From: Clostridia bacterium
Lineage (GTDB): Bacteria; UBA6262; WVXT01
DNA length: 64,000 bases
Assembly: GCA_009619095.1 (NCBI GenBank)
Contig: WJOT01000027.1
Location: 6,812 to 70,811 of the forward strand
Reading direction: 5' to 3'
This document shows positions 5,797 through 58,841 of this stretch, piece by piece (position 1 is the first letter of the stretch; every line of letters begins with the position of its first letter). The position numbers were made by a program, and so were the translations under genes. Below the pieces are notes generated by a model. That model was given only the letters and a program-made list of their open reading frames with translations. It was not told the DNA's origin and ran no database searches.

Positions 5797-5910
5797 GAGG
5801 GATAGTCTTTTGCACGGTTGAAACCGTGCCTACAAATCTCCTTGCCATTGTAGGCACAGATTCAATCTGTGCAATTGACCGAGCGACTCCGATAACTATC
5901 CCTTCATCCT
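5797..5910. repeat. Mosaic palindromic repeat cluster (modules A, B, C/TIR)
   Basis: Hairpin A gcacggttgaaaccgtgc (5812-5829) followed by cctacaaa; hairpin B gcacagattcaatctgtgc (5854-5872); module C gaccgagcgactccgataactatccct (5877-5904), inverted relative to gagggatagt at 5797. Confidence 0.85.
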
Positions 5911-9783: not shown

Positions 9784-9882
9784 TGTAGGCACAGATTCAA
9801 TCTGTGCTCTTTTGTCCCGATTCATCGGGACCTACAAATATATTTTGCACGGTTAAAACCGTGCCTACAAATACTATCCCTT
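9784..9882. repeat. Mosaic palindromic repeat cluster (B, D, A, C-end)
   Basis: gcacagattcaatctgtgc 9789-9807; gtcccgattcatcgggac 9814-9831; gcacggttaaaaccgtgc 9847-9864 followed by cctacaaa; actatccct overlaps the dxs stop. Confidence 0.85.
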
Positions 9883-13033: not shown

Positions 13034-13115
13034 TGTGTAGCAGCAAAGCGAAAGCTTTGCACAGATTGAATCTGTGCCTACAATGGTTTTTGTAGGCACG
13101 GTTTCAACCGTGCAG
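13034..13115. repeat. Mosaic palindromic repeat cluster (E, B, A)
   Basis: gcaaagcgaaagctttgc 13042-13059; gcacagattgaatctgtgc 13058-13076; gcacggtttcaaccgtgc 13095-13112. Confidence 0.85.
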
Positions 13116-16486: not shown

Positions 16487-18043
16487 TTATTTTGCAGTTT
16501 CGATGGCTCTTGTCTCTCTGATAACCGTAACTTTTATCTGTCCAGGATACTCTATTTCTTTTTCGATTTTCTTAGCTATCTCCCTGGCCAGATTTTGCAC
16601 CATACTATCCTCCACCTCTTCCGGTTCCACAATAATCCTTATCTCTCGTCCTGCTTGAATGGCATAAGATTTCTCTACTCCTCGAAAAGAATTGGCTACA
16701 TTTTCCAACTTCTCCAGCCTCTTTAAATAGTATTCCAGAGATTCTCTCCGAGAACCTGGGCGGGAAGCAGAGGCTGCATCAGCAGCCTGCAGCAGGACTG
16801 CCTCTACACTCTGAGCCTGGCAGTCTTCATGATGGGCAGCAACGGCATTAACCATCTTCGAGAGTTCATTATATTTTCTTGCTAAATCTGCACCAATCTG
16901 GGCATGTGTTCCCTCCACGTCACGATCGATAGATTTACCTATATCATGTATCAACCCCGCTCGTCTGGCAAATTTCGCATCTACGCCTAACTCACCAGCC
17001 AATATAGAAGCTATGTGAGCTACCTCTAAAGAATGCTGGAGAACATTCTGACCATAACTGGTTCGATATTTAAGCCTACCTATTAACCTAATTATTTCCG
17101 GGTGGAGACCTTGAACGCCGACGTCAAATGCTGCTTGTTCTCCCATTGACTTTAGATGTGCTTCCATCTCTTCCTTTGCCTTTTCTACAATTTCTTCAAT
17201 CCTTGCCGGGTGAATCCTGCCATCGGCAATTAGTCTTTCCAGAGCAACCCGGGCAATTTCCCTTCTCACCCCATCAAAGGCAGAAAGTGTAATGGCTTCA
17301 GGAGTGTCGTCAATTATTAAATCAACTCCAGTGGCGTTCTCGAAAGCCCGAATATTCCTCCCTTCCCGGCCTATCACGCGGCCTTTCATCTCATCATCGG
17401 GCAAAGAAACTGTGGAAACGGTGATATCCGCAGTATGCTCCACAACACAACGCTGGATAGCCTGACTTAAAATCCCTTTAGCTTTTCTTGTTCCGATCTC
17501 TATAGCCTCTTGTTCCATCCGTCTAATAATTGTCGCCGCTTCTTTATTAGCCTCTTCCTCCATATTGGCCAGGAGAATTTTCTTTGCTTCTTCCGGGGTC
17601 ATTCTGGCTAACCTTTCCAATACCCTTTTTTGTTCCTCCTTTGCTTGCGCTAACTTCTTTGCTTCCTCCTCCCAGTGTTTCTCTTTCCCTAAAACATATC
17701 TCTCTTTCTTGTTGATTTCTCTCTCTTTTCTCTCCAGGATATCAACTTTACGGTCTAAATTTTCATCTTTCTGTGCTAATCGCTTTTCCAGACTTTCCAA
17801 CTCTTTTCGTCGACTTCGCGTTTCCTCTTCAAATTTAATCCTTGCTTTGTGCATTTCATCTTTTATCTCAAGGATGCCTTCTTTCTTTTCCGATTCCGCC
17901 TCTCGCTGGGCGGAATCGATTATCCTTTTCGCTTGTGCTTCAACCGATGAGGCCTGAAATCTCGCATAAATAAATCTTAAAATATATCCTGCCAACATTC
18001 CTAATAGAAGGCAACCCGCACCAATCAAGATTAGACTATTCAT
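16487..18043 (-). CDS. rny: Ribonuclease Y
   Basis: 518 aa; N-terminal TM helix, long coiled coil, KH domain ([15 protein letters not shown]) and HD domain ([14 protein letters not shown]). Confidence 0.95.
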
Positions 18044-18059
18044 TTTTCCCTCCTATGTG

Positions 18060-18345
18060 AATCAGCTCCGAAGGAGTCCGACGCCTCCATCGGGATTCGG
18101 AGTCCTGTCGGACCTGTGCTTCCCCGATATTACATATCGGGGACTCTCTGTCTCCGGGGCGCTCAAGCGTCTTTCGCCCGCGCCTTTCCCTCGTTTCGCT
18201 CGGTCGTCCCGATTTCATCGGGACCGGCATTCCGGGGCGCTCACCGTCTCGCGCCCGCGCCTTTCCCTCGCTTCGCTCGGTCGTCGCTCCTTATTCGTCG
18301 CGACCGACGCCCCTTCCACAAAGGTTTCCTTAATCTACGGAAAAT
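18060..18345. repeat. GC-rich modular scaffold element, copy 1 (includes a 78-bp tandem duplication)
   Basis: ctccgaaggag, ccccgatattacatatcgggg, ..ctctctgtc.., then tccggggcgctca..gcgcccgcgcctttccctcg.ttcgctcggtcgtc at 18153-18207 and again at 18231-18285, ending ..ccccttcc.caaaggtttccttaatc. The same linker order occurs at 23847-23996 and 30487-30785. Confidence 0.8.
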
Positions 18346-18410: not shown

Positions 18411-19016
18411 TTATGGTCGGTCTTTACAATCTACTATCCCGCTCTCAGTAACTATTTTATCAACCTTCATATCTCCTTTTACGAGAGGAATTTTCCTGGC
18501 AATCTGCAAATCGAAAGCAAGTCCAATCAGTGCACATTGACGGGAGCGACTCATCCTTGATCTTATCGATTTACTTCTTAAAAATCGATCATAATATCCT
18601 CTCCCATACCCCAGGCGACCTCCCCTTTTATCAAAGACTACTCCAGGGACAACTACAAGATCAATCTCTTTTTGATTCACCCTCCTTCTGAACTCTTTTT
18701 TCGGCTCTTTTATTCCAAAACTTCCCTTGGTGAGTTCTTTTTTTAAATTTTTAATCTCGGACACCACTATCTTTTCTCCATGCACAACAGGTATTACTAT
18801 CTTTTTCTTCAATTTCAGCGCATTTCTTGTCATTTTCTCTGTTTCCACTTCACTACGAAAAGATACATAAAACATAACTGTCTTTGCTCGTTGGAACTCA
18901 GGTAAGGAAAAGAGTTCCTTTTCGATTTTCTCGCTTTTAGATTTTATTTCATCCCGGGAAAGGTTATTTCTCTTCTTCAGGAATTCTTGCCTGATTTTTC
19001 TTTTTTTCTCCTCCAT
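18411..19016 (-). CDS. 5-formyltetrahydrofolate cyclo-ligase
   Basis: 201 aa; ..IVIPVV.. and ..GGRLGYGRGYYDRFL is the MTHFS signature. Confidence 0.85.
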   Translation of the reverse strand: MEEKKRKIRQEFLKKRNNLSRDEIKSKSEKIEKELFSLPEFQRAKTVMFYVSFRSEVETEKMTRNALKLKKKIVIPVVHGEKIVVSEIKNLKKELTKGSFGIKEPKKEFRRRVNQKEIDLVVVPGVVFDKRGGRLGYGRGYYDRFLRSKSIRSRMSRSRQCALIGLAFDLQIARKIPLVKGDMKVDKIVTESGIVDCKDRP

Positions 19017-20519: not shown

Positions 20520-20680
20520 AAAAAAAGTCCCCGCTCTGCCGTGTGTCTGACTGTTTTAAAGCACCAACTTAAAGTGGGTATCCTGTTCTGATAACCACGA
20601 TTACCAGAAACTCCGGATTCCCTGATCTACACTTGTCGGCTTAAAATAGTCAACACATCACGAACATCGCAGGGACAATA
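20520..20680 (-). ncRNA. ssrS: Candidate 6S RNA
   Basis: Minus-strand RNA of about 160 nt directly downstream of zapA. The 5' arm GUCCCUGCGAUGUUCGUGAUGUGUUGAC pairs imperfectly with the 3' arm GUCAGACACACGGCAGAGCGGGGAC, and a U-run follows. The 3' bubble GCUUUAAAACAGUCAGACACA resembles E. coli 6S GCCUUAAAACUGCGACGACACA. In E. coli the order is zapA-ssrS-ygfA. Ends are approximate. Confidence 0.55.
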
Positions 20681-21308: not shown

Positions 21309-23726
21309 TCATTTTCTCACTTTTACTTTTAAATCTCTTTCCAACTCTTCCACTATTCTCATATGTAAACTATTTACCTGTTCATCCCTCAAGGTCTTTT
21401 CCATGGATTGATAAATAATTTTACAGGCTAAGCCCCTCTTCCCCGGCTCAATCTGTTTACCAAAATAGACATCGAAAAGTTTTACGTCTTGAACGAGCTC
21501 ACCTCCAACCTTCTTAATTTTAACACAAATCTCTCCAAATGTCAAGCCCTGGGGAGCTACCAAAGCAATATCCCTGGAAACCCAGGGAAACCTCGACATT
21601 CTCTTATACTTTTTCTTAATCTCGATAAGTCTACACATTTTGTCAAAATCTAACTCAAAAATGTATACTTTATCTCTGAATTCCATTTTGCGGGAGACCT
21701 TATTAGCTAATTCGCCAAAATCTCCCAGATGTTCATTGTCTACCATTATCTTATTGGAAATTCCCTCTTCCAGAAGAAAATGGCTGCTTTTCTCTATCCC
21801 AGATTCTCCACGACGTTGAGGATAAATGCCCAGTTCTCCTAACAGGGAGTCCACAATCCCTTTAACATAGTAAAAATCGATAGCTTTTGAAGAGTCTTCC
21901 CAGTATCGCTCCTCCTGAGTACCAACCAGGACACCTGCCAAAATCCTTTTCTCTTCTGGTATGCCCTTTCCAGGAAAGAAGACCCGACCTATTTCGAATA
22001 TTTTCATATCAGGGACCCCATGGTTTAGATTCCATTTCAGGACCGATAGAAGACACGGGAGAAGGGAAGTGCGTAAAAGACTCTGTTCCCGAGATAAGGG
22101 ATTGGTAATCTCCACAGTTCCTTTAAGCCCTGTGGGGATAGCAATGTCCAGTTCATTATAATATTCTGGACTAACCAGAGAACGGCTGACAACTTCGCAT
22201 AATCCTAATCTGGTTAAAATCTCTCTTACAAAGTCTTCTAACATCAAAACTTTATCATCAACCGAATCACTGATCTCTATTTTCGGCATTCCTGAGGGAA
22301 TCTTATCATATCCATATAGTCGGGCAATCTCTTCTACCAGGTCGATGGGGCGAGAAATGTCGTTTCGATAGGAAGGCACTCTGACCCACAGGTGCTTCTC
22401 CCCCTCTTTCTGGGAAATGTTAAATCGCAGACGGGTCAAAATTTCACTCATTTCTTTGGGAGAAATATTAGAACCCAAGATATGGTTGGTCTCTTCCGGA
22501 GAAAACTCTATTTCTACTGGAGAGAAAGGCTGAGGGTAGACATCGATTACTCCAGAAGCAACTTTTCCTCCGGCGAGTTCCTGGATTAACTGGCAAGCTC
22601 GATTGGAGGCGATAAGGACATTTTCCACATCAACACCACGTTCAAAACGATAAGACGATTCTGTATCAATCCCCAACTGCCGGGCTGTACTTCTTACTAC
22701 TTGAGGAACAAAATAAGCGCTTTCCAAAAGCACATTTCTGGTAGATTGGTCAACACTGGTCTCTACCCCTCCTATTATTCCCGCTAAAGCAATCGGGCGC
22801 TTGGCATCAGCAATAAGTAAATTCTTTTCTGTCAATTTTCTCTGTTCATTATCCAAAGTCAACAGCTTCTCGCCAGGAGTAGCAAAACGCACAAGAATTT
22901 TATGCTCACACAATTTATCATAATCGAAGGCGTGAAGAGGATGGCCAAGTTCAATTAGCACATAATTGGTAACATCCACTACATTATTAATCGGTCTAAG
23001 CCCTACTGTCTCCAATTTCTTGACTAACCAAGAAGGGGAAGGACCCACCTTCAACTCTCGAATAATTCTGGCGGTATAACGCCTACATGCTTGGGGATGG
23101 AGAATCTCCGTTTTCGCTAAATCGAATACAGAAATTCCGTTTTCCTTTAATTCAATCCTGGGTGGCTTTAAATTCCCACCCAAAATAGCGGAAACCTCAC
23201 GAGCTATCCCAAATATACTGGCACAATCGGAGCGATTGGTAGTCAGTTCTACCTCCAGCACTATTTCTTCCAACGTTAACGTCTTCTTAATATCCTCACC
23301 CAGTTTACAACCAGGGGGAAGAATATGAATGCCACTGGCATCTTCTCCAACCCCCAATTCTTTCTCAGAACAGAGCATTCCGTAAGAAGTCTGCCCTTTT
23401 ATTTTCGCCTTACTTATTCTTCTCCCACCAGGAAGTTTAGCTCCCACCCTGGCAAGAGGAACTAAATTCTTAACCTTTATGTTCCTTGCTCCACAAACTA
23501 TAGAAAAAATCTGCTTCCCATCGGAAACTTGACAGAGGCTTAATTTATCTGCCTGGGGAAGAGGCTTCAGGGAAAGGATTTCACCAACCACCACGTTCTC
23601 CACCTCTGACCCCAAATAGAGAATATTGCTCACTTCCAGACCTGCCATGGTGAGACATTTAGCCAGTTCTGGAGGAGACAGGGAAAAATCTACATACTCC
23701 TTTAACCAATTATAAGAAATTCTCAT
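21309..23726 (-). CDS. pheT: Phenylalanine--tRNA ligase beta subunit
   Basis: 805 aa; starts MRISYNWLKEYVD; tRNA-binding, B3/4, B5 and FDX-ACB domains in order. No pheS is adjacent. Confidence 0.97.
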   Translation of the reverse strand: MRISYNWLKEYVDFSLSPPELAKCLTMAGLEVSNILYLGSEVENVVVGEILSLKPLPQADKLSLCQVSDGKQIFSIVCGARNIKVKNLVPLARVGAKLPGGRRISKAKIKGQTSYGMLCSEKELGVGEDASGIHILPPGCKLGEDIKKTLTLEEIVLEVELTTNRSDCASIFGIAREVSAILGGNLKPPRIELKENGISVFDLAKTEILHPQACRRYTARIIRELKVGPSPSWLVKKLETVGLRPINNVVDVTNYVLIELGHPLHAFDYDKLCEHKILVRFATPGEKLLTLDNEQRKLTEKNLLIADAKRPIALAGIIGGVETSVDQSTRNVLLESAYFVPQVVRSTARQLGIDTESSYRFERGVDVENVLIASNRACQLIQELAGGKVASGVIDVYPQPFSPVEIEFSPEETNHILGSNISPKEMSEILTRLRFNISQKEGEKHLWVRVPSYRNDISRPIDLVEEIARLYGYDKIPSGMPKIEISDSVDDKVLMLEDFVREILTRLGLCEVVSRSLVSPEYYNELDIAIPTGLKGTVEITNPLSREQSLLRTSLLPCLLSVLKWNLNHGVPDMKIFEIGRVFFPGKGIPEEKRILAGVLVGTQEERYWEDSSKAIDFYYVKGIVDSLLGELGIYPQRRGESGIEKSSHFLLEEGISNKIMVDNEHLGDFGELANKVSRKMEFRDKVYIFELDFDKMCRLIEIKKKYKRMSRFPWVSRDIALVAPQGLTFGEICVKIKKVGGELVQDVKLFDVYFGKQIEPGKRGLACKIIYQSMEKTLRDEQVNSLHMRIVEELERDLKVKVRK

Positions 23727-23795
23727 TTTTCTTCATTCCTGCGAGGGATTTGATTGCTGTAGCAGCCAAGCGTAACCTTTGATTCAATTCTTCTT

Positions 23796-24124
23796 AAAAA
23801 ATAGTTTGTGAAGAGTATTTGGAATTTTAGCCAAAAAACGAGGACAAGTGTTCCTCAAAGGAACACTTCCATAGGGGTTTCACCCCTCTGGCGTTCACCC
23901 CGATTCCATCGGGGTTCTCTGTCACCCCTTGGGGGAAATCAGATTATTTCCCCCAAACCCCCTAATCCGCATCCCGATTGAAAATTGGGATGCTTCACTT
24001 ATCTTCTTTCAAGCAAAAATTTGTCCGAGTCCCGCTGTGCGGGAGGAGTTTATTTTTGTGCCCCGCAGAGTCCGAAGTTTTTTGGCGTTAAGAAATTCCC
24101 AAACGATGAACAAATTATTTTTTA
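23796..24124. mobile_element. MITE copy 1 (329 bp) carrying a nested 150-bp GC-rich scaffold element
   Basis: Ends TAAAAAATAGTTTGT ... ACAAATTATTTTTTA (inverted), extending to imperfect subterminal IRs of about 50 bp (..ggaattttagccaaaaaacgaggac / gtccgaagttttttggcgttaagaaattcc..). Collinear with 27199-27376 except for an insertion at 23847-23996. Confidence 0.65.
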
Positions 24125-24130
24125 ATATCC

Positions 24131-25156
24131 CTATTTAAAAAGGGTATGGGCGAAGTCGATCCATTCAGGGGAAACAGTCTTTAACTTACCCACAGCTTCT
24201 TCTAAACTAACCCCCATCATCTCTGTTCCCCGTAAGGAGACCATCTGACCAAACTTTCCTTCTTTAATCAGTTCCACTGCTTTTACACCAGCCCTCACTC
24301 CCAGCATTCGGTCGAATAGAGTGGGAGCTCCTCCCCTCTGCATATGACCGATAACGCTCACCCTGGTATCAACTCCCAGTCTATCCCTTATAACTCTAGC
24401 AATACCTTCTCCCATCCCTCTCTCTTTCAAAAGCATATGGCCAAACTGATCCAGTTTTTCTTTACTTATTTTCTCTCCGGGAACTTCGATACCTTCAGAA
24501 ACTACTACTGTGGCTATCTTTTTCCTTTCATAAACTCTTTTCAAATGTTTGCACATCGAATCTATATCCGCTTTTTCCTCAGGAAGCAGAACCCAGTCTG
24601 CACCACCGCCAATGGCTGTAAACAGCGCCACCCAGCCAGCGTGCCTGCCCATTACCTCTAAAACCATAATCCTTCTATGTGATTTTCCAGTATTTTTTAA
24701 AACTTCCAAAGCATTCATCGCCAGAGTAACCGAGGTATCGAAACCAAAAGTGTAATCTGTGGATGAAAGGTCATTGTCCATAGTTTTTGGGACACCAACA
24801 ACTTTCATCTTGTGTTCCTTATATAGTTTATTGGCTATTCCTAAAGTATCTTCGCCACCCATAGCAACTATTGCCTCAATCTTAAGTTTTCTTATATTCT
24901 GCAAACATCTTTCCACGCCCTTCTCTACCTTATAGGGACTGGTCCGGGAAGTGCCCAGTATTGTCCCTCCTTTATTCATTAAATCTTCCACTTGGGAAAT
25001 TCCCAGGGACTCAGTCAAACCCTCAATCAATCCCTTCCAGCCCTCATTAATTCCCACTACTTCCCAGCCAAAATCCATTGCCCGCAACACACATCCACGA
25101 ATTGCCGGATTTAAACCTGGCACATCTCCTCCACCATTCAATACTCCAATTCTCAT
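24131..25156 (-). CDS. 6-phosphofructokinase, PPi-dependent-type signature
   Basis: 341 aa PFK fold; GGEDT in place of GGDGS, and PKTMDND (Lys) in place of PGTIDND. These are the residues classically correlated with PPi use. Confidence 0.8.
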   Translation of the reverse strand: MRIGVLNGGGDVPGLNPAIRGCVLRAMDFGWEVVGINEGWKGLIEGLTESLGISQVEDLMNKGGTILGTSRTSPYKVEKGVERCLQNIRKLKIEAIVAMGGEDTLGIANKLYKEHKMKVVGVPKTMDNDLSSTDYTFGFDTSVTLAMNALEVLKNTGKSHRRIMVLEVMGRHAGWVALFTAIGGGADWVLLPEEKADIDSMCKHLKRVYERKKIATVVVSEGIEVPGEKISKEKLDQFGHMLLKERGMGEGIARVIRDRLGVDTRVSVIGHMQRGGAPTLFDRMLGVRAGVKAVELIKEGKFGQMVSLRGTEMMGVSLEEAVGKLKTVSPEWIDFAHTLFK

Positions 25157-27198: not shown

Positions 27199-27376
27199 TA
27201 AAAGATAGTCTGTGAAGAGCTATTGGAATTTTAGCCAAAAAACGAGGACGGCTCATCTTTTTTCAAGCAAATCACTGTCTGACGAGCGAAGCGAGGAGTT
27301 TTGATTTGCGCCTTGCAGAGTCCGAAGTTTTTTGACGTCAAGAAATTCCTCCTAGCGATGAACAGACTATCTTTTA
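27199..27376. mobile_element. MITE copy 2 (178 bp)
   Basis: Perfect 15-bp terminal inverted repeat TAAAAGATAGTCTGT (27199-27213) / ACAGACTATCTTTTA (27362-27376). Subterminal sequence is shared with 23796-24124. Confidence 0.7.
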
Positions 27377-28182: not shown

Positions 28183-30483
28183 TTATCTTGTCAAGTTATC
28201 CTCTTTCGACTCCCCTTTAAACCTGGACTTTGTCTCTTTTAACTTCCTCGCGGCCAATTCGTTTCCAGGAGCAACTTTCAAAACTTTTTGGAATTCTTCT
28301 CTTGCCAGATTGACCTTTTTCAATTCCAGATAGGCAAGACCAAGGTTATTATGAGCCCCAATATTGAATGTGGGAGAGAGTTTGATTGTCTTCTCATATT
28401 GATTGATTGCTTCTTTCATCTTACCCTGGCTAAAATATATATTACCCAAATAGAGGTTTGCTTTTATGTTTCCAGGAACAAGCTTTACAATCTTCCCGTA
28501 AGTCTCTTCTGCTTTATCCCAATCTCTATTGTTTACATATTTTTCCCCCTTCTCAAATAGAAGGTTGATTTCCTGAGTTGGTGCAGGAATAGGGGGTTTC
28601 TTTCCCATCTGTGCCTGGACATAGGAAAGATTCGCCTTAACTTTCGAATTTTCGGGCTCAAGCTCTAATATCTCTCGATATTGGTTAGCAGCTTTCTCCC
28701 ATTCCTTTCTTCCAATATGCACCTGTGCAAGGTAAGAGCGGGTAGGGACGGAGAGAGGATTTATCTCAATCGATTTACTTAGAGCTTCCATAGCCTCTGG
28801 TATTCTCTTGGTCTGTCCATACATAATTCCTAAATTTGAATATATCTCGTCGTAACCAGGGTTTGCTTCTATTGCTTTAAGGTAAGCCCAAATAGCTTTC
28901 TCCTTCTCACCTAAGCGAGCATAAACGTTTCCCAGTTCATAGTTATTGTCCACATTTAGAGGATAAATCTTATAGGATAGCTCGCACTCCCTAACTGCGT
29001 TTCCCAGCGTAGCGTTATTTTTTGCATACTTAAAGCCCTTAAAATAATGAATTTCCCCTCGGAAATATCTGAGATTAAACAGAACAATTCCCAAAATAAT
29101 TATTCCCAATGGGTAAACAAGGAATTTTTTAATGGGAATCTTACGTTCTGACACCTTCCATCTCTGGCATATTCCCACTACCAATCCCATCCATATCCAG
29201 AAGAAAAGGGCAGGCATTGGAAAATGTAAGGAAACGTTCAACAAATTGTCAATGAGCATTCCCAAAATGCTTGCCAAAAGCCCCAAAGCAACAATCTTAT
29301 CATATTCACCAGTAAGCTTTCTGTAACTATCTATTCCCATTTTAAAAAAGAGGATAAATAACCAAATATATATTCCCAAACCCACAATCCCCGTCTGGGA
29401 AACTATCTCTAATATCTCATTATGAGTATTGTTGGCATGAGTGCGAAAAGGAGAATACTTCTTTATCTTCAGAAATTTCCCTTGATGAAATGGATAGATA
29501 ATCTCGAAATTTCCCCAGCCATGGCCTAAAAGTGGACTTTCCTTAAACATAGAATAGGCCGCTTGCCAGATTAAGAATCTTTGAACATAGGCCATCTGCC
29601 TAAAATCGGCAATGCTCTTAACCTTCTCCATAACAAGCTTCACAACCATAACTTTCTTTTCCCTTTGCTCACCGACCCTTACAGGATAGAGCATCATCAG
29701 AAACAGAACACCTGCCAGAAAGATTAACCATTTTCTATTCCTGGAAATTAGAGAACCCTGGTGGAAAATGAGATAGAAGGCAAGGAAAATCAAAGCCACA
29801 AAAAGTCCCAGCCAGGCACTGCGAGTGCGGGTTACCAGGAGTCCAAAGAAGTTAACTCCGAAAAGTCCGCCTAAAAAGAGCTTCTTTATGAGAGCCTTTT
29901 CATAAACAGCCAGAACCGCTATTACAGGCAAGATTAGAATCAAAAAACTTGCCAGGAAATTGGGGTTGCCAAAAGTGGAGACGCTGCGAGTGCCAAAGGG
30001 ATCTAGCTTCCTTGGCCATATGGGTTCAATCCCTCCATACTGAAGTAAAGCATACAAAGAGACAAGCGTTCCCACGGCAAAGGCAATATATAGTAACCTT
30101 TTAAGATTTCTTTCATCGTGAAGGAGGTAGACAGTTATGTAAAAGACCGCTATGCAATTGAGAAACAAAAATAGCAGCCTTCTTCCACTGAAAGAAAGGA
30201 TAGCCAGTTTAAATTCCGGATGGATATAGAACGAATAAGCAACTGAGAGAAGGGAGACCAAAAAGAAGAGGAAAAGGGGTTTGTCGAGGTATGTTCTGGG
30301 CAAAATAATCTGACGCTTAAGATTGCTTTTTATCAGCCAGATAGCTAAAATTACAGATAGACCAATCCCAAGCACCACGTTTTGAATTACATAAGGATTG
30401 CGCGTAGTATCGGTAAGAAAGATTAAGGGACAAATTAAAAGGATAAGAAAAAAAATATATCTTATTATGCGTTCGAAATCCAT
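28183..30483 (-). CDS. O-antigen ligase-like (Wzy_C) polytopic membrane domain fused to C-terminal TPR repeats
   Basis: 766 aa; about 10 TM helices including ..TRTRSAWLG.. and ..H.HN..LE.....G..G, then multiple TPR units (AIWAYLKAIEANPGY...). Paralog of 32194..34728. Confidence 0.8.
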   Translation of the reverse strand: MDFERIIRYIFFLILLICPLIFLTDTTRNPYVIQNVVLGIGLSVILAIWLIKSNLKRQIILPRTYLDKPLFLFFLVSLLSVAYSFYIHPEFKLAILSFSGRRLLFLFLNCIAVFYITVYLLHDERNLKRLLYIAFAVGTLVSLYALLQYGGIEPIWPRKLDPFGTRSVSTFGNPNFLASFLILILPVIAVLAVYEKALIKKLFLGGLFGVNFFGLLVTRTRSAWLGLFVALIFLAFYLIFHQGSLISRNRKWLIFLAGVLFLMMLYPVRVGEQREKKVMVVKLVMEKVKSIADFRQMAYVQRFLIWQAAYSMFKESPLLGHGWGNFEIIYPFHQGKFLKIKKYSPFRTHANNTHNEILEIVSQTGIVGLGIYIWLFILFFKMGIDSYRKLTGEYDKIVALGLLASILGMLIDNLLNVSLHFPMPALFFWIWMGLVVGICQRWKVSERKIPIKKFLVYPLGIIILGIVLFNLRYFRGEIHYFKGFKYAKNNATLGNAVRECELSYKIYPLNVDNNYELGNVYARLGEKEKAIWAYLKAIEANPGYDEIYSNLGIMYGQTKRIPEAMEALSKSIEINPLSVPTRSYLAQVHIGRKEWEKAANQYREILELEPENSKVKANLSYVQAQMGKKPPIPAPTQEINLLFEKGEKYVNNRDWDKAEETYGKIVKLVPGNIKANLYLGNIYFSQGKMKEAINQYEKTIKLSPTFNIGAHNNLGLAYLELKKVNLAREEFQKVLKVAPGNELAARKLKETKSRFKGESKEDNLTR

Positions 30484-30486
30484 TTC

Positions 30487-30785
30487 AAGATAACCCCTTC
30501 GGGGTTACTCCCATAGGGGCTCCGCCCCTCTGGCGCTCACCAAATGTCCACCAGACATTTACTTCTCTGTCCTCCGGGGCGCTCACCATCTCGCGCCCGT
30601 CGCTAACACGGAGCTCCTTACTCGTCGCTCCAGCGGTCCTTCGGACCCGGGGCGCTCACCGTCTCGCGCCCGTCGCTAACACGTCCCGATTTATCCATCG
30701 GGACAGCAACCCCTTGAGGGAAACCAGATTGTTTCCCTCAAACTTCCTAATCCGCATCCCGATTAATAATCGGGATGCTCTTTGA
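30487..30785. repeat. GC-rich modular scaffold element, copy 3 (abuts the RE of the tnpB element)
   Basis: taaccccttcggggtta, ccataggggctccgcccctctggcgctcacc, aaatgtccaccagacattt, cttctctgtc, two ggggcgctcacc.tctcgcgcccgtcgctaacac units (74-bp period), gtcccgatttatccatcgggac, accccttgagggaaaccagattgtttccctcaaacttcctaatccgcatcccgattaataatcgggatgc. Confidence 0.8.
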
Positions 30786-30960
30786 CAACTCCCCATGCCT
30801 AAAGGCAGGGGATTCTCCAACTTATACCATTGCTGGTTTTCGTATTAGGAGTTCCTGTTTCGCTGTGGAAGCTAATGCCTCCACTCCACAGGCTATGACC
30901 GCGTGTCCCGCGGCTAATATGTTTATGCTTGCGTTTAGGTCTGCGTTTTCTGTGTGTCCG
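30785..30960 (-). ncRNA. Expected omega/reRNA of the TnpB element (3' end of tnpB plus RE); extent not determined
   Basis: By analogy with characterised TnpB systems, the guide RNA scaffold overlaps the tnpB 3' end and the RE. The RE hairpin ccccatgcctaaaggcagggg lies at 30791-30811, 11 nt after the stop. Confidence 0.3.
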
Positions 30961-32027
30961 CAGTTTTGACACTGAAACACTTCCTGGTTTATCCTGTTTT
31001 CTTTTGAGATATGGTGGCATATTCTGCACTCCAGACTGGTATTCTTCGGAAGTATCAGTACCAGTCTTCCATCTCTCCAGTTCAGTTTATAGGAGAGGTG
31101 GTTCTGGAATGTGTACCAGCCCTGGTCAAGGATGGAACGATTTAGTCCTGATTTGGCTTTTACGTTTGTTCCCGGTTTTTCCTTTGTTCCTTTGGCTGAT
31201 TTGGCCATATCTTTTGTCTTTAGGTCTTCCATGACAATTAAGCTGTGGCTCTTGGCTAATTGCGTGGAAACCTTATGTAGAAAGTCATTGCGTAGATTTG
31301 CTATATGGTTGTGGAGTTTCTGTATTTTTTGCTTGGTCTTTCTCCAATTTGAGGAGAACTTTTTCTTTTTGGATAGCTGTCTTTGTAGTCTGGCAAGTCT
31401 CTTTAGATTCTTCTTTAGAGGTGATACTGTAGGTATAGCTTCTCTATTTGAACATTGAGCAAAGATCTTTATGCCTCTGTCTATTCCTATGTGAGATTGA
31501 GGTATTTCCTTAGGCTGTGGGATATCTTCACAGTTAAATGAAATGAACCAGTTTTTGCAAGATTTTGATATGGTTACATGTCTTATTCTTCCCTCAATTT
31601 CTCTTGTCTTGGTGAAACGGACTATGCCGAGTTTAGGAAGATTTACCTGGCCTACCTTCTTTGATAGCTGTTTTGTTAGGGTTACTCCTTGGGGAAGACG
31701 AAAGCTGTCGTTCACTCCCTTCTTTTTGAACTTGGGATAGCCTCTGCCAGAGAAGAAGTTCTTAAAGGCCTGGTCCAGGTCCTTGTTGACTTGTTGAAGA
31801 GATTGAGAAGGTGGACTAGAGAGCCAATCAAGTTCCTCCTTCCATTCTGCGAGCAGGTTATTTAAGTCAAAACAAGATAGATTCTCTTTCTTCTTCTCCC
31901 AAAGTTCCTTCTTTAGGGCTAAGGCCCTGTTCCATACATAGCGGCATGAGCCTGCTGTCTGGCTACAGAGAGACTCTTGTTCTCTGGTCAATCTGAGTCT
32001 ATATTTGAAGCTCTTTTTGATTATCAT
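30822..32027 (-). CDS. tnpB: TnpB RNA-guided endonuclease (IS605 OrfB family)
   Basis: 401 aa; starts KSFKYRLRLTREQE; RuvC triad context IGIDRGIK / IVMEDLK / NADLNASINI; zinc ribbon CRICHH..CQNCGH. Confidence 0.9.
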   Translation of the reverse strand: MIIKKSFKYRLRLTREQESLCSQTAGSCRYVWNRALALKKELWEKKKENLSCFDLNNLLAEWKEELDWLSSPPSQSLQQVNKDLDQAFKNFFSGRGYPKFKKKGVNDSFRLPQGVTLTKQLSKKVGQVNLPKLGIVRFTKTREIEGRIRHVTISKSCKNWFISFNCEDIPQPKEIPQSHIGIDRGIKIFAQCSNREAIPTVSPLKKNLKRLARLQRQLSKKKKFSSNWRKTKQKIQKLHNHIANLRNDFLHKVSTQLAKSHSLIVMEDLKTKDMAKSAKGTKEKPGTNVKAKSGLNRSILDQGWYTFQNHLSYKLNWRDGRLVLILPKNTSLECRICHHISKENRINQEVFQCQNCGHTENADLNASINILAAGHAVIACGVEALASTAKQELLIRKPAMV

Positions 32028-57251: not shown

Positions 57252-58424
57252 TCAAGATGCGAGAGTTTCCTGCTTCTTCGAGTTGACTTGCTTCATCGAC
57301 AGAATCGAAGAAACAGAGGCCATTTTCTCCACAGGCGTTACTTCGGGCATGCCCTGCCCTACGCTTAATATTATACTTGATGCGTTATCATCCCTGTCAT
57401 GGACTGTGCCACAGTTGGGGCATGTCCATGTCCTCCGGGATAACTTTAAATCAGTCATTACAAACCGACAAATACTGCATTCCTTACTGGACGGATAAAA
57501 TCTCGGTATCTGTTTCACCGTCCTGCCATACCAATCAGCTTTGTATTGCATCTGTCGGCATAACTCTCCCCATCCACTATCGCTGATAGCTTTAGCAAGG
57601 TAACGGTTACGAACCATGCCCTTCACATTTAAGTCTTCAAGGCATATCACCTGGTTTTCGTTGATAAGCCTATAGGACAGTTTGTGAAGAAAATCATTAC
57701 GCTGATTCGTAATCTTCTCGTTGAGCTTTGCCACTTTTAGCCGTGCTTTATTGCGATTTTTAGAGCTTTTCTCTTTCCTCGATAACTAACGTTGTAGCTT
57801 CTTAAGAAGTCGCTCTGATTGCAACAACGTCTTAGGATGCTCTATCTTCTCGCCCCCTGACAGTGTGGCAAAATGCGTAAGCCCGAGGTCAACGCCTATC
57901 TTGCGGTTCGTAATAGGCAGTTTTTCCGTTACTGTTTTAGAGATTACCGATACAAAATATTTGCCTGATGGTGTTTTGGAAATAGTTGCAATCACGGGAA
58001 TACCATTAATTGCCCTGTGCAGTTTGACCTTAATGCCATCTTTGGCTTTCGGTATGTAGAGCTTATCATCCTCAATTCTGAAGTTCTGTGGAACAGCAAA
58101 GGACTGAAATCCATTTTTTGTCTTAAATCTTGGATAGCCGGCAAAACCTTTAAAAAAACGCCTGTATGCCTTTTCAAGGTTTAATACTACGTCTTGCAAC
58201 GATTGGGAATTTACATCTTTTAACCATGGGAATTCAGTTTTAAGATTTTTCAACTGACGTTTGCACTCAAATCCAGATATTGATTGTTTATTTCTCTGCC
58301 ATGCATCTCTCCGTAAAGCAAGAAAGTGGTTATACACAAAACGACAACTACCAAAGTGTTTCTCAAGAAACTCCTTCTGTTTTTCGGTAGGATACAGCCT
58401 GTATTTAAATGCCTTTAAGATCAT
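57252..58424 (-). pseudogene. tnpB: tnpB with a single in-frame TAG (codon 213)
   Basis: ORFs 57786..58424 and 57252..57734 are in the same frame (1173 nt = 391 codons), separated by TAG at 57786-57788: ..LLKKLQR*LSRKEKSSKNRNKARLKVAKLNEK.. The RuvC D/E/D contexts (IGVDLGL, ICLEDLN, DRDDNAS) and the zinc ribbon are intact. Confidence 0.8.
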
Positions 58425-58841
58425 CCCTTCCTCTGGTCTTCAATATACTTTTTAATGGTTTCTTCTGATATGTGCCCTATCGTTTCAATGTATGTTGATG
58501 GATTCCACAACTGACCTTTCCACAGATTCTTCTTTATCCTCGGAAACTCTATAAATATTCTTCTGCCGGAAATGCCTTTGAACATTTTATAGATAATAAG
58601 ACGCAGAAAACTTCGGATGCGCCGATACAAAAACATGCACGTGATCTGACATCACTTCTATACTCTTGATTTCAAACCCTTTTTCTTTCGCTATGTCGTA
58701 TAAAATAACTTTCAGCCTGTCAGCTATCTTTTCGGTTAAAACCTCCCGTCTGTATTTAACTGACCATACAATATGGTAATTAACATTATATACAACTGTC
58801 CTTGCGTGTGTGAGATTCCCTATATGTAGATAGTATAACAA
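58421..58841 (-). pseudogene. tnpA: IS200/IS605 Y1 transposase tnpA with one frameshift (near 58600)
   Basis: N-terminal part ..YHIVWSVKYRREVL..SDHVHVFVSAHPKFS (HUH) is in one frame. C-terminal part ..IIYKMFKGISGRRIFIEFPRIKKNLWKGQLWNPSTYIETIGHISEETIKKYIEDQ (catalytic Tyr region) is in another frame. Confidence 0.8.

Follow-up and report, generated by a model that had tools for sequence, protein, structure and literature searches.

A 64,000-nucleotide (nt) stretch of Clostridia bacterium DNA (GTDB lineage Bacteria; UBA6262; WVXT01; assembly GCA_009619095.1, contig WJOT01000027.1, positions 6,812 to 70,811; hereafter the window) contains, next to a Wzy_C/TPR gene, a 295-nt 'scaffold' of hairpins and conserved linkers that has nine further copies elsewhere in the genome. 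We find that this scaffold element is a small non-coding mobile repeat and not a gene-specific RNA regulator. It is probably (we put the chance at roughly 0.65) a non-autonomous mosaic repeat resembling repetitive extragenic palindromes (REPs), bacterial interspersed mosaic elements (BIMEs) and REP doublets forming hairpins (REPINs), moved in trans by RayT-type enzymes. The element is mobile, its make-up is mosaic and its core is a REP; a RayT-type mobilising enzyme, a single-stranded intermediate and any effect at the RNA level are inferred.

The whole assembly of the window's genome (G000; 1.99 Mb, 86% complete) was searched, and orthologous spacers were compared in eight other genomes of the same family, G002, G004 and G005 being of the same genus as G000 and G006–G008 of three other genera. 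Coordinates and element parts are written in the plus-strand orientation of an earlier, preliminary description of this DNA; C-numbers denote contigs of G000 and L-numbers loci or stretches extracted from other genomes. Element ends for copies 1–3 were set from empty sites. A 25-nt core pattern searched among GTDB species genomes matched more than 113 stretches, which is a lower bound, and counts on copies in other genomes refer to 117 copies in 113 loci, among the matches listed. The reversed control pattern gave 0 matches in 41 genomes and 0 in 301 genomes.

Scaffold elements as lineage-specific insertions

The ten copies in the genome, which include copies 2 and 3 of the window, lie at unrelated loci and have one layout: hairpin H1, the core hairpin (H2), a variable hairpin (V), block B, hairpin H4, ACCCC and the terminal hairpin H5. 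The parts present in the window are listed below, together with the miniature inverted-repeat transposable element (MITE) around copy 2 and the composite previously called copy 1.

30486..30780, plus strand: scaffold copy 3, 295 nt, antisense to both flanking genes, from filled/empty-site comparison
30491..30507, plus strand: H1 of copy 3, TAACCCC ttc GGGGTTA; another sequence at the equivalent position in copy 2 and others
30511..30535, plus strand: core hairpin H2 of copy 3, CCA-T-AGGGGC tcc GCCCCT-C-TGG plus CG; exact in 10 genome copies and more than 113 foreign stretches
30542..30560, plus strand: V (slot 2) of copy 3, AAATGTCCaccaGACATTT; copy 2 has CCCCGATtccATCGGGG, of the CCCGAT..ATCGGG family, instead
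30572..30708, plus strand: two U units of copy 3, within block B, cores GGGGCGCTCACC.TCTCGCGCCC at 30576 and 30649
30714..30741, plus strand: H4 of copy 3, TTGAGGGAAAC cagatt GTTTCCCTCAA, from folding and both-side pair changes
30754..30778, plus strand: terminal hairpin H5 of copy 3, GCATCCCGATtaataATCGGGATGC, the CCCGAT REP-like type of this genome
~23846..23997, plus strand: scaffold copy 2, 152 nt, without a U unit; core 23869-23893, block B intact at 23919-23928
23796..24124, plus strand: MITE holding copy 2; empty relative at 27199-27376
~18055..18332, plus strand: 'copy 1' composite of REP-like hairpins, CTCTGTC and two U units, without the scaffold core

The core is the one invariant part. 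The string CCATAGGGG-N5-CCCCTCTGGCG (TTCCAT-AGGGGN nnn NCCCCT-CTGGCG) is exact in 10/10 genome copies and pairs as CCA-T-AGGGGN-nnn-NCCCCT-C-TGG followed by CG, whereas the H1 and V hairpins vary. Block B, CTGTCACCCC (consensus YTCTCTGTC|ACCCC), lies between V and H4; H4 itself has the consensus TTGRGGGAAAY cagatt RTTTCCCYCAA, is followed by the linker ACYCCCTAATCC, and precedes the terminal hairpin GCATCCCGAT..ATCGGGATGC. CTGTCACCCC is continuous in copies without U units, whereas in five of the ten it is interrupted, exactly at CTGTC^ACCCC, by one or two of these ~73-78-nt units. Copy 3 is of the latter kind, its CTCTGTC (30565-30571) and ACCCC (30709-30713) standing on either side of the units. 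Copies 2 and 3 also have (T)CTCTGTC and ACCCCTTGRGGGAAAYCAGATTRTTTCCCYCAAACYYCCTAATCCGCATCCCGATT..GGGATGC in common, so that the ordered strings listed in the preliminary description are present in both. Its second observation, that unrelated hairpins occupy equivalent positions, holds for these copies at two places: aagtgttcc..ggaacactt in copy 2 against taacccc..ggggtta in copy 3 at the H1 position, and ccccgattccatcgggg against aaatgtccaccagacattt at the second.

The family had also been taken to include copy 1. This composite shares with the family only CTCTGTC and two ~78-nt U units; it is without the core and the 3' linker/hairpin block, and is therefore another composite, outside the scaffold family. 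Its two U units (GGGG starts 18156 and 18234) repeat with the period of 78 originally given, and those of copy 3 (GGGG starts 30576 and 30649) with a period of 73, not 74. There are ~21 U units in the genome, with the core GGGGCGCTCACCRTCTCGCGCCC, often in arrays of their own that reach the ribosome-binding site of the next gene. U-like units are also interleaved with partial tRNA copies, at C18:51518-51990, C6:18082-19219, C6:79002-79959, C113:7668-8331 and C123:7077-8926. On C18, one such unit comes after tRNA positions 1-49, a second precedes the full tRNA, and T-arm 3' fragments follow it; in this genome, too, hairpin modules and tRNA pieces have been duplicated together.

The contents of the slots are not peculiar to the scaffold. 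A CCCGAT-loop-ATCGGG hairpin occurs 223 times in the genome (210 intergenic, 23 in scaffold or U elements) and is seen in V of copy 2, in H5, in U units and in stand-alone clusters with CTAC feet on C74 and C23; the H5 hairpin likewise stands alone in clusters at C74:8002-8374 and C23:56700-56860. Since the slot hairpins match this repeat, the 'swapped helices' of the preliminary description are largely the genome's own REP-like hairpins at fixed positions. The modules are cassette-like, as had been proposed, in the loose sense that the points at which U units and REP-type hairpins nest are fixed.

In copies from different genomes, hairpins are conserved while their sequences change. H4, in contrast to the slots, is a single type of hairpin, and eight of its nine pairs are changed on both sides (43 cells, compared with 12.2 +/- 2.7 in shuffles; 0/500), the pairing having been entered by hand for this count; MAFFT misaligned rows without the spacer. 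All 95 of 95 distinct cross-genome versions of H4 fold, with a median z of -3.6, and the copy on C101 retains the H4 loop and flanks around a wholly different stem. At the inner pair of H2, 106 copies have C-G and 8 have T-A, and RNAalifold, run on 38 cores, predicted H2 alone. These changes support a selected hairpin and do not distinguish RNA from single-stranded DNA. The claim of conserved positions with exchanged helices is accordingly accurate as a description, but it applies equally well to DNA hairpins.

Orthologous sites provide evidence for mobility. Copy 3 is present in G000, G001 and G003 and precisely absent from G002, G004, G005, G006, G007 and G008. The empty site reads ..ATCCATTT^(C)TATAATAG.. 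(longer right flank TATAATAGAAAAAA) and the insert CAAGATAACC...GGGATGCTC; comparison of filled and empty sites reveals neither a target duplication nor terminal inverted repeats. The number of U units at this orthologous locus is two in G000, three in G001 and one in G003. Copy 1 behaves similarly, its site being empty in seven of eight relatives (G001, G002, G004, G005, G006, G007 and G008), among them G001, in which rny is 96% identical to that of G000; in the eighth, G003, the insert is shorter and contains a single U unit. The copy 2 site, upstream of pheT, is empty in G007, contains the MITE without a scaffold in G003 and other repeats elsewhere. Thus, all three loci have empty sites or sites of different content between flanking genes that are 85-98% identical between genomes. 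These loci are lineage-specific insertions whose modules were gained recently and stepwise, in agreement with the earlier suggestion that the element is or was mobile.

Copy 2 lies, as previously noted, within a MITE. With the empty MITE copy at 27199-27376 as reference, it splits the MITE between ..cgaggac and (tt)ca/cttatctt..; a second filled MITE copy is found at C8:2283-2653, and further MITE copies at C44:9846-10032 and on C60 and C89. The scaffold itself is not a MITE of the DDE type, as its empty and filled sites display neither terminal inverted repeats nor a fixed-length target duplication. The pheT-PFK spacer (23727-24130) and its orthologues (L275-L282) form an insertion hot spot with contents that differ per genome: the MITE, the MITE plus scaffold, CCCGAT hairpins, GTCATTGCGA-type palindromes, or nothing. 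A GTAGCAGCAAAGCG..GCTTTGC.. repeat occurs in intergenic spacers at 13037, 16334, 23759 and 51457, one of these just left of the MITE of copy 2.

The core hairpin and RayT genes

The core hairpin is a REP, the presumed recognition hairpin of one clade of RayT proteins (Y1 HUH enzymes). It is a REP in the strict sense because the same hairpin flanks RayT genes in three other genomes. In one (G090, Omnitrophota), the gene for a 190-aa RayT has the core hairpin twice upstream and once overlapping the stop region; two further RayTs, ~49% identical and from other assemblies, have it ~60-100 nt upstream and at the 3' end. The flanking hairpin at these loci (L127, L264 and L265) is GTGCCAGAGGGGTC[A/T]GACCCCTCTGGCAC, i.e. 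GTGCCAGAGGGGTC[A/T]GACCCCT[C/A]TGGCAC. All three proteins belong to Pfam Y1_Tnp, and homologues bear the JGI label 'REP element-mobilizing transposase RayT'. The hairpin is even translated, as the C-terminus VP[EQ]GSDP in seven homologues; the three nearest homologues (54-75% identical) were compared by C-terminal peptides only. In a system of this kind, RayT would bind and cleave the single-stranded hairpin.

Classical REPs are imperfect palindromes of 20-40 nt with a GTAG or CGTC tag at one end, they lie mostly between unidirectional or convergent open reading frames (ORFs), and the E. coli RAYT cleaves single-stranded REP DNA (PMC3733652). The core palindrome is 23-25 nt long with a U/C mismatch, and its tags, ATAG and AGAG, match GTAG at three of four positions. 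A variant, CCAAAGGGGC..GCCCCTATGGCG, with A/A replacing the U/C mismatch, occurs in Ca. Velamenicoccus archaeovorus LiM (G043), which also has one canonical copy, at 232765-232791 and 277886-277912, and CTATGG variants of the core are also common in other Omnitrophota.

Outside the window's genome, the more than 113 matching stretches come from at least eight phyla, usually with one to three per genome (one to three also in complete genomes). They include Omnitrophota, Planctomycetota, Acidobacteriota, Holophagaceae, Rokubacteria, Elusimicrobiota, Gemmatimonadota, Thermodesulfovibrionia and several unnamed lineages. The distribution is sporadic: 16 of 301 Omnitrophota have the core, as do three of the four genera of the window's family, whereas the sister family and order are without it. 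Downstream of the foreign cores, 95 of 106 copies have an exact CTGTCACCCC, after which come H4 and ACCCC(TTT). Among 2.9 million viral contigs there was no match to the core, which leaves a phage vector unsupported. Omnitrophota genomes with the core average ~4.1 Y1_Tnp loci, compared with ~1.9 in those without.

Within the window's family, Pfam Y1_Tnp loci number 11 in G000, eight in G003 and none in G001 or G005. In G000 they consist of three IS605-type tnpA+tnpB loci, of which two are identical copies, and at least six RayT-like genes; GTAG-footed palindromes particular to each gene flank the latter.

C107:15139-15645, RayT-like gene
C46:14147-14656, RayT-like gene
C18:39558-40217, RayT-like gene
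C116:8693-9199, RayT-like gene
C112:232-690, RayT-like gene
C42:9161-9688, RayT-like gene

Examples of these palindromes are tttGTAGGCACGGTTTTAACCGTGC and GTAGGGGACGACC.., several REP/RayT systems (REPtrons) thus residing together in a 2-Mb genome. The GTAGGCAC-type REP that flanks the C107 gene is found in the window at 5826-5857, 9785-9868, 13074-13099 and 52991, in some cases as inverted pairs.

Many foreign copies adjoin a tRNA gene. It is within 400 nt in 58 of the 117 copies; in 46 of these it is found to the right, at a distance of 76-161 nt, and is encoded on the opposite strand. Such adjacency is frequent outside the window's genus; copies within the genus occupy non-tRNA sites without duplication. 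Read in the sense of the tRNA, a spacer of 10-40 nt follows the gene; next come an antisense copy of the terminal ~15-26 nt of the tRNA, the core region and, last, the tRNA 3' end in a sense copy. The arms match the adjacent tRNA whichever it is (Ser, Arg, Gln, Met, Val, Thr, Asp or Asn), and in one genome three copies (L032, L084 and L103) each match their own tRNA. The length of the direct repeats lies between ~23 and 58 nt, and in L008 the trailer forms part of the repeat; L014, L110 and L032 form tandem or 1.5-unit arrays. A hairpin of 10-45 nt often interrupts the T-loop of the sense copy, at TTC^GAA. The partial tRNA 3' copy (as in L005, L016, L018, L078, L084 and L008) nearly always has this extra hairpin, exactly at that point, and the inserts vary in sequence (GGCCGAAGGCC, GGGCGAAGCCC, CCTGCCTGCCGTCAGGCAGG; 44 nt in L084). 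The tRNA-linked copies are predicted to fold into a five-way junction closed by the tRNA-derived stem.

Relative to the neighbouring genes or tRNA, the element keeps one orientation. All ten copies in G000 are antisense to flanking co-directional genes, as are 21 against 2 in other phyla (p = 7e-5), and its orientation relative to the adjacent tRNA is 55 against 3. From Y1 enzymes acting on the lagging-strand template, a preference for one replication strand is expected.

Together, these results suggest a model in which copies would travel as folded single strands of DNA that a RayT-type enzyme cuts and rejoins in trans. At least three places accept hairpin modules, namely H1, V and the CTGTC^ACCCC junction at which U units expand and contract, and new modules would enter at hairpin apexes and junctions. 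Behind a tRNA, the closing stem would consist of the inverted and the direct copy of the tRNA 3' end. Like the REPs of E. coli, the element is probably co-transcribed, because it always has the same sense within transcription units; an effect on mRNA stability or processing, if there is any, would be a by-product and not the cause of conservation.

Several observations weigh against mobilisation by RayT. None of the 11 Y1_Tnp loci of G000 is core-flanked or encodes an EGSDP C-terminus, so no cognate RayT was found there; G001 has five scaffold copies and zero Y1_Tnp matches, and two complete Planctomycetota genomes, with three copies and one, are likewise without Y1_Tnp. A tblastn search with the RayTs against the 113 loci around foreign copies recovered no RayT, and none of 80 metagenomic RayT relatives less than 50% identical has the hairpin. 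Clustering of ORFs around the 117 copies yielded no recurrent transposase, and no multi-copy transposase ORF was found in G000. The copy number (1-10) is low compared with classical REPs, the tag is ATAG or AGAG and neither GTAG nor CGTC, and the element has a single REP with no inverted pair. We know of no RayT mechanism that would explain duplicated tRNA 3' ends. The orientation bias is also ambiguous: GC skew in G000 (+/-0.1 to 0.26 in 20-kb windows) follows the gene strand in sign (48 contigs, r = 0.98), so that replication strand and transcription sense are inseparable. Finally, one 25-nt core occurs in at least eight phyla, whereas inheritance of REPIN-RAYT systems is reported to be mostly vertical (10.1101/2022.05.22.493013).

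Alternative explanations

The tRNA-linked copies raise the alternative of an element that targets tRNA 3' flanks by an insertion mechanism of its own, in which the REP-like hairpin was merely recruited and RayT is not the mobiliser. Insertion could then proceed by switching of templates or fold-back synthesis at the hairpin of the T-arm, by a retro-type event with priming on the tRNA 3' end, or by att exchange in the manner of an integrase. The fixed order of the 46 copies, arms that match each adjacent tRNA even three times in one genome, direct repeats with the trailer included in one case, the tandem and 1.5-unit arrays, and the presence of copies in genomes without Y1_Tnp are all as this explanation would have it. 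However, copies within the window's genus sit at non-tRNA sites with no duplication, there is no reverse transcriptase, integrase or other recurrent gene near the copies, and RayT genes of three genomes have the core hairpin on their flanks. Moreover, arm identity could also arise by gene conversion with the neighbouring tRNA, and an empty-site comparison at the tRNA-Asn locus of CP070830 was thwarted by loss of synteny across the order. We therefore regard this alternative as unlikely. A related idea, which we advance as doubtful but slightly less so, is that the REP-centred, horizontally spreading unit inserts behind a tRNA gene and takes its closing stem from the target, as an inverted and a direct copy of the tRNA 3' end, often with a small hairpin set into the copied T-loop at TTC^GAA. 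Such a target-templated mode of insertion at a hairpin apex would be one not known from RayT/IS200-type or any other bacterial element, and could need host functions alone where Y1 is absent.

It is also conceivable, though we think it improbable, that no dedicated mobility is involved and that slippage, unequal recombination and gene conversion among the abundant intergenic palindromes gave rise to the composites as by-products. Such processes would account for the variable number of U units at one locus, for a deletion derivative on C78 in which H1 is joined straight to H5, and for the hot spot upstream of pheT, where the repeats differ per genome. They do not readily explain why a whole unit of 150-295 nt was inserted precisely into conserved spacers, why one ordered unit recurs at 10 unrelated loci, or why an identical 25-nt plus 10-nt core exists in at least eight phyla.

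The preliminary description had named a structured RNA family as one of two possibilities and placed copies 1 and 3 in the 5' leaders of rny and Wzy_C/TPR. The neighbouring genes are the following.

16487-18043, minus strand: rny
18411-19016, minus strand: 5-FTHF cyclo-ligase
21309-23726, minus strand: pheT
24131-25156, minus strand: PFK
28183-30483, minus strand: Wzy_C/TPR
30822..32027, minus strand: TnpB, 401 aa, intact, the only gene of a tnpB-only insertion sequence (IS) of the IS200/IS605 family (Pfam OrfB_IS605 4.4e-28, Cas12f1-like_TNB, HTH_OrfB_IS605)

Copies 1 and 3 do abut the start codons of rny (18043) and Wzy_C/TPR (30483), but as the neighbouring genes are all on the minus strand, the strand as written is antisense to them and any transcript would be the reverse complement. 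A cis-regulatory or processed small RNA, with selection on a multi-helix junction fold and spread only secondary, could draw on the predicted five-way junction closed by a long stem, on the both-side pair changes in H4 and the inner pair of H2, and on an orientation that is strictly that of transcription. Wobble pairs, too, lean towards the gene sense in the closing stem (73 vs 35) and the H4 extension (131 vs 15), counts confounded by C-rich blocks and noisy stem calls. Against this, wobble pairs are balanced in H1 (35 vs 42) and V (20 vs 17), and the bias in H4 derives largely from fixed C-rich blocks. The insertion is also polymorphic within the genus: the same leaders in close relatives are without the element, and a gene-specific leader function is therefore ruled out. 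The neighbouring genes are unrelated to one another, the distribution is sporadic (5% of Omnitrophota; sister family and order without it), and the core is a RayT-flanking hairpin. Searches of Rfam 15 with the window, the element (E up to 10) and six foreign loci returned tRNAs and 6S only at the gathering threshold, the best sub-threshold hits scoring ~15 bits with E = 0.5 or worse. A structured RNA family acting in these leaders is not supported, and we consider this explanation very improbable. As a cis-regulatory leader RNA specifically, the element was rejected on the upstream regions of rny, pheT and Wzy_C/TPR in close relatives, which are without it.

A ribozyme, a bridge or omega RNA, a dif/Xer site, an attC site, a G-quadruplex and an IS91-type target were dropped, no result supporting them.

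The TnpB gene abuts the right end of copy 3 and lies outside the scaffold; G001 and G003 have TATAATAGAAAAAACC at its site, indicating that the tnpB-only IS is a separate recent insertion. Further along the window, a degraded IS605-type element (57252-58841, minus strand; identical copy at C49:8465-8825) has tnpA split into two ORFs (58587-58841 and 58421-58636) and tnpB likewise (57786-58424 and 57252-57734). A 6S RNA gene (20524-20678, minus strand; Rfam 58.6 bits) lies between the regions studied, and tRNA genes are found at 41027, 42362 and 45182, all on the minus strand.

Comparison with known systems

Literature searches for the motif and for repeats downstream of tRNA genes returned nothing relevant and no description of the scaffold element. 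Identifying it as selfish mosaic DNA bears on annotation, since 'structured' intergenic sequence in poorly studied phyla can be of this kind and false calls of RNA families can be avoided. It also connects, over several phyla, a single exact REP hairpin with a clade of RayTs, when REPIN-RAYT systems are usually described as lineage-bound and vertical. The slots illustrate how REP-type hairpins nest into one another to give BIME-like mosaics, and the tRNA-linked architecture, with its arms, T-loop insertions and tandem units, offers a testable clue to target choice and remodelling by hairpin elements.

The closest known systems are the REPtrons of E. coli, Pseudomonas and Stenotrophomonas (Nunvar 2010; Ton-Hoang 2012; Di Nocera 2013, PMC3733652). 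Like their REPs, the core is a short imperfect palindrome with a stem mismatch, extragenic between co-directional genes and non-autonomous, and in three genomes the hairpin stands on both sides of a Y1 HUH RayT gene in inverted orientation. Unlike REPtrons, in which copies run to tens or hundreds, there are 1-10 per genome here; most carrier genomes are without a cognate RayT, an identical core is found in at least eight phyla, the tag is ATAG or AGAG, and the hairpin overlaps the stop region of RayT, where it is translated as VPEGSDP.

The resemblance to REPINs (Bertels and Rainey 2011, PMC3116915) lies in the proposed long-hairpin unit moved in trans by a single-copy RayT and in the two inverted arms that close tRNA-linked copies. 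The arms, however, are copies of tRNA 3' ends and not two REPs, and the spread looks horizontal. As there is one core hairpin per element, two inverted REPs forming one long hairpin, which define a REPIN, were not found.

The palindrome-associated transposable elements (PATEs) of the IS200/IS605 group offer a further analogy, in that the scaffold would share with them the lack of target duplication and of terminal inverted repeats, subterminal hairpins, strand specificity and probable action of a Y1 enzyme in trans. The two end hairpins of the scaffold differ from each other, unlike those of PATEs, and its ends are unlike the IS605-type flanks at C22, at C14/C49 or of the tnpB beside copy 3.

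BOX elements of Streptococcus pneumoniae, which are built as boxA-(boxB)n-boxC and confined to streptococci, resemble the scaffold in folding strongly and in their A-(B)n-C layout, where tandem units, equivalent to the 73-78-nt U units of the scaffold, stand in variable number between conserved ends. There is no sequence relation, and BOX differs in its terminal inverted similarity, its confinement to streptococci and its lack of a known Y1 link.

BIMEs of E. coli are mosaics of REP (PU) units with fixed linker motifs and alternating Y and Z REPs. The scaffold appears analogous in its ordered palindromic units and conserved non-palindromic linkers, its variable number of internal units, its intergenic position and its probable co-transcription; ordered palindromes and linkers whose unit content varies between copies, the hallmark of a BIME-like mosaic, are what we found. 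It departs from BIMEs in having a single REP with three or four accessory hairpins in place of alternating Y and Z REPs, fixed slots that take unrelated hairpins, and a closing stem made of flanking sequence. The kind of element is thus already known from REP/RayT systems and BIMEs; what is new is a single REP set in a fixed multi-hairpin scaffold with slots, together with tandem U units, the small number of copies, a core shared without change by at least eight phyla and arms derived from tRNA.

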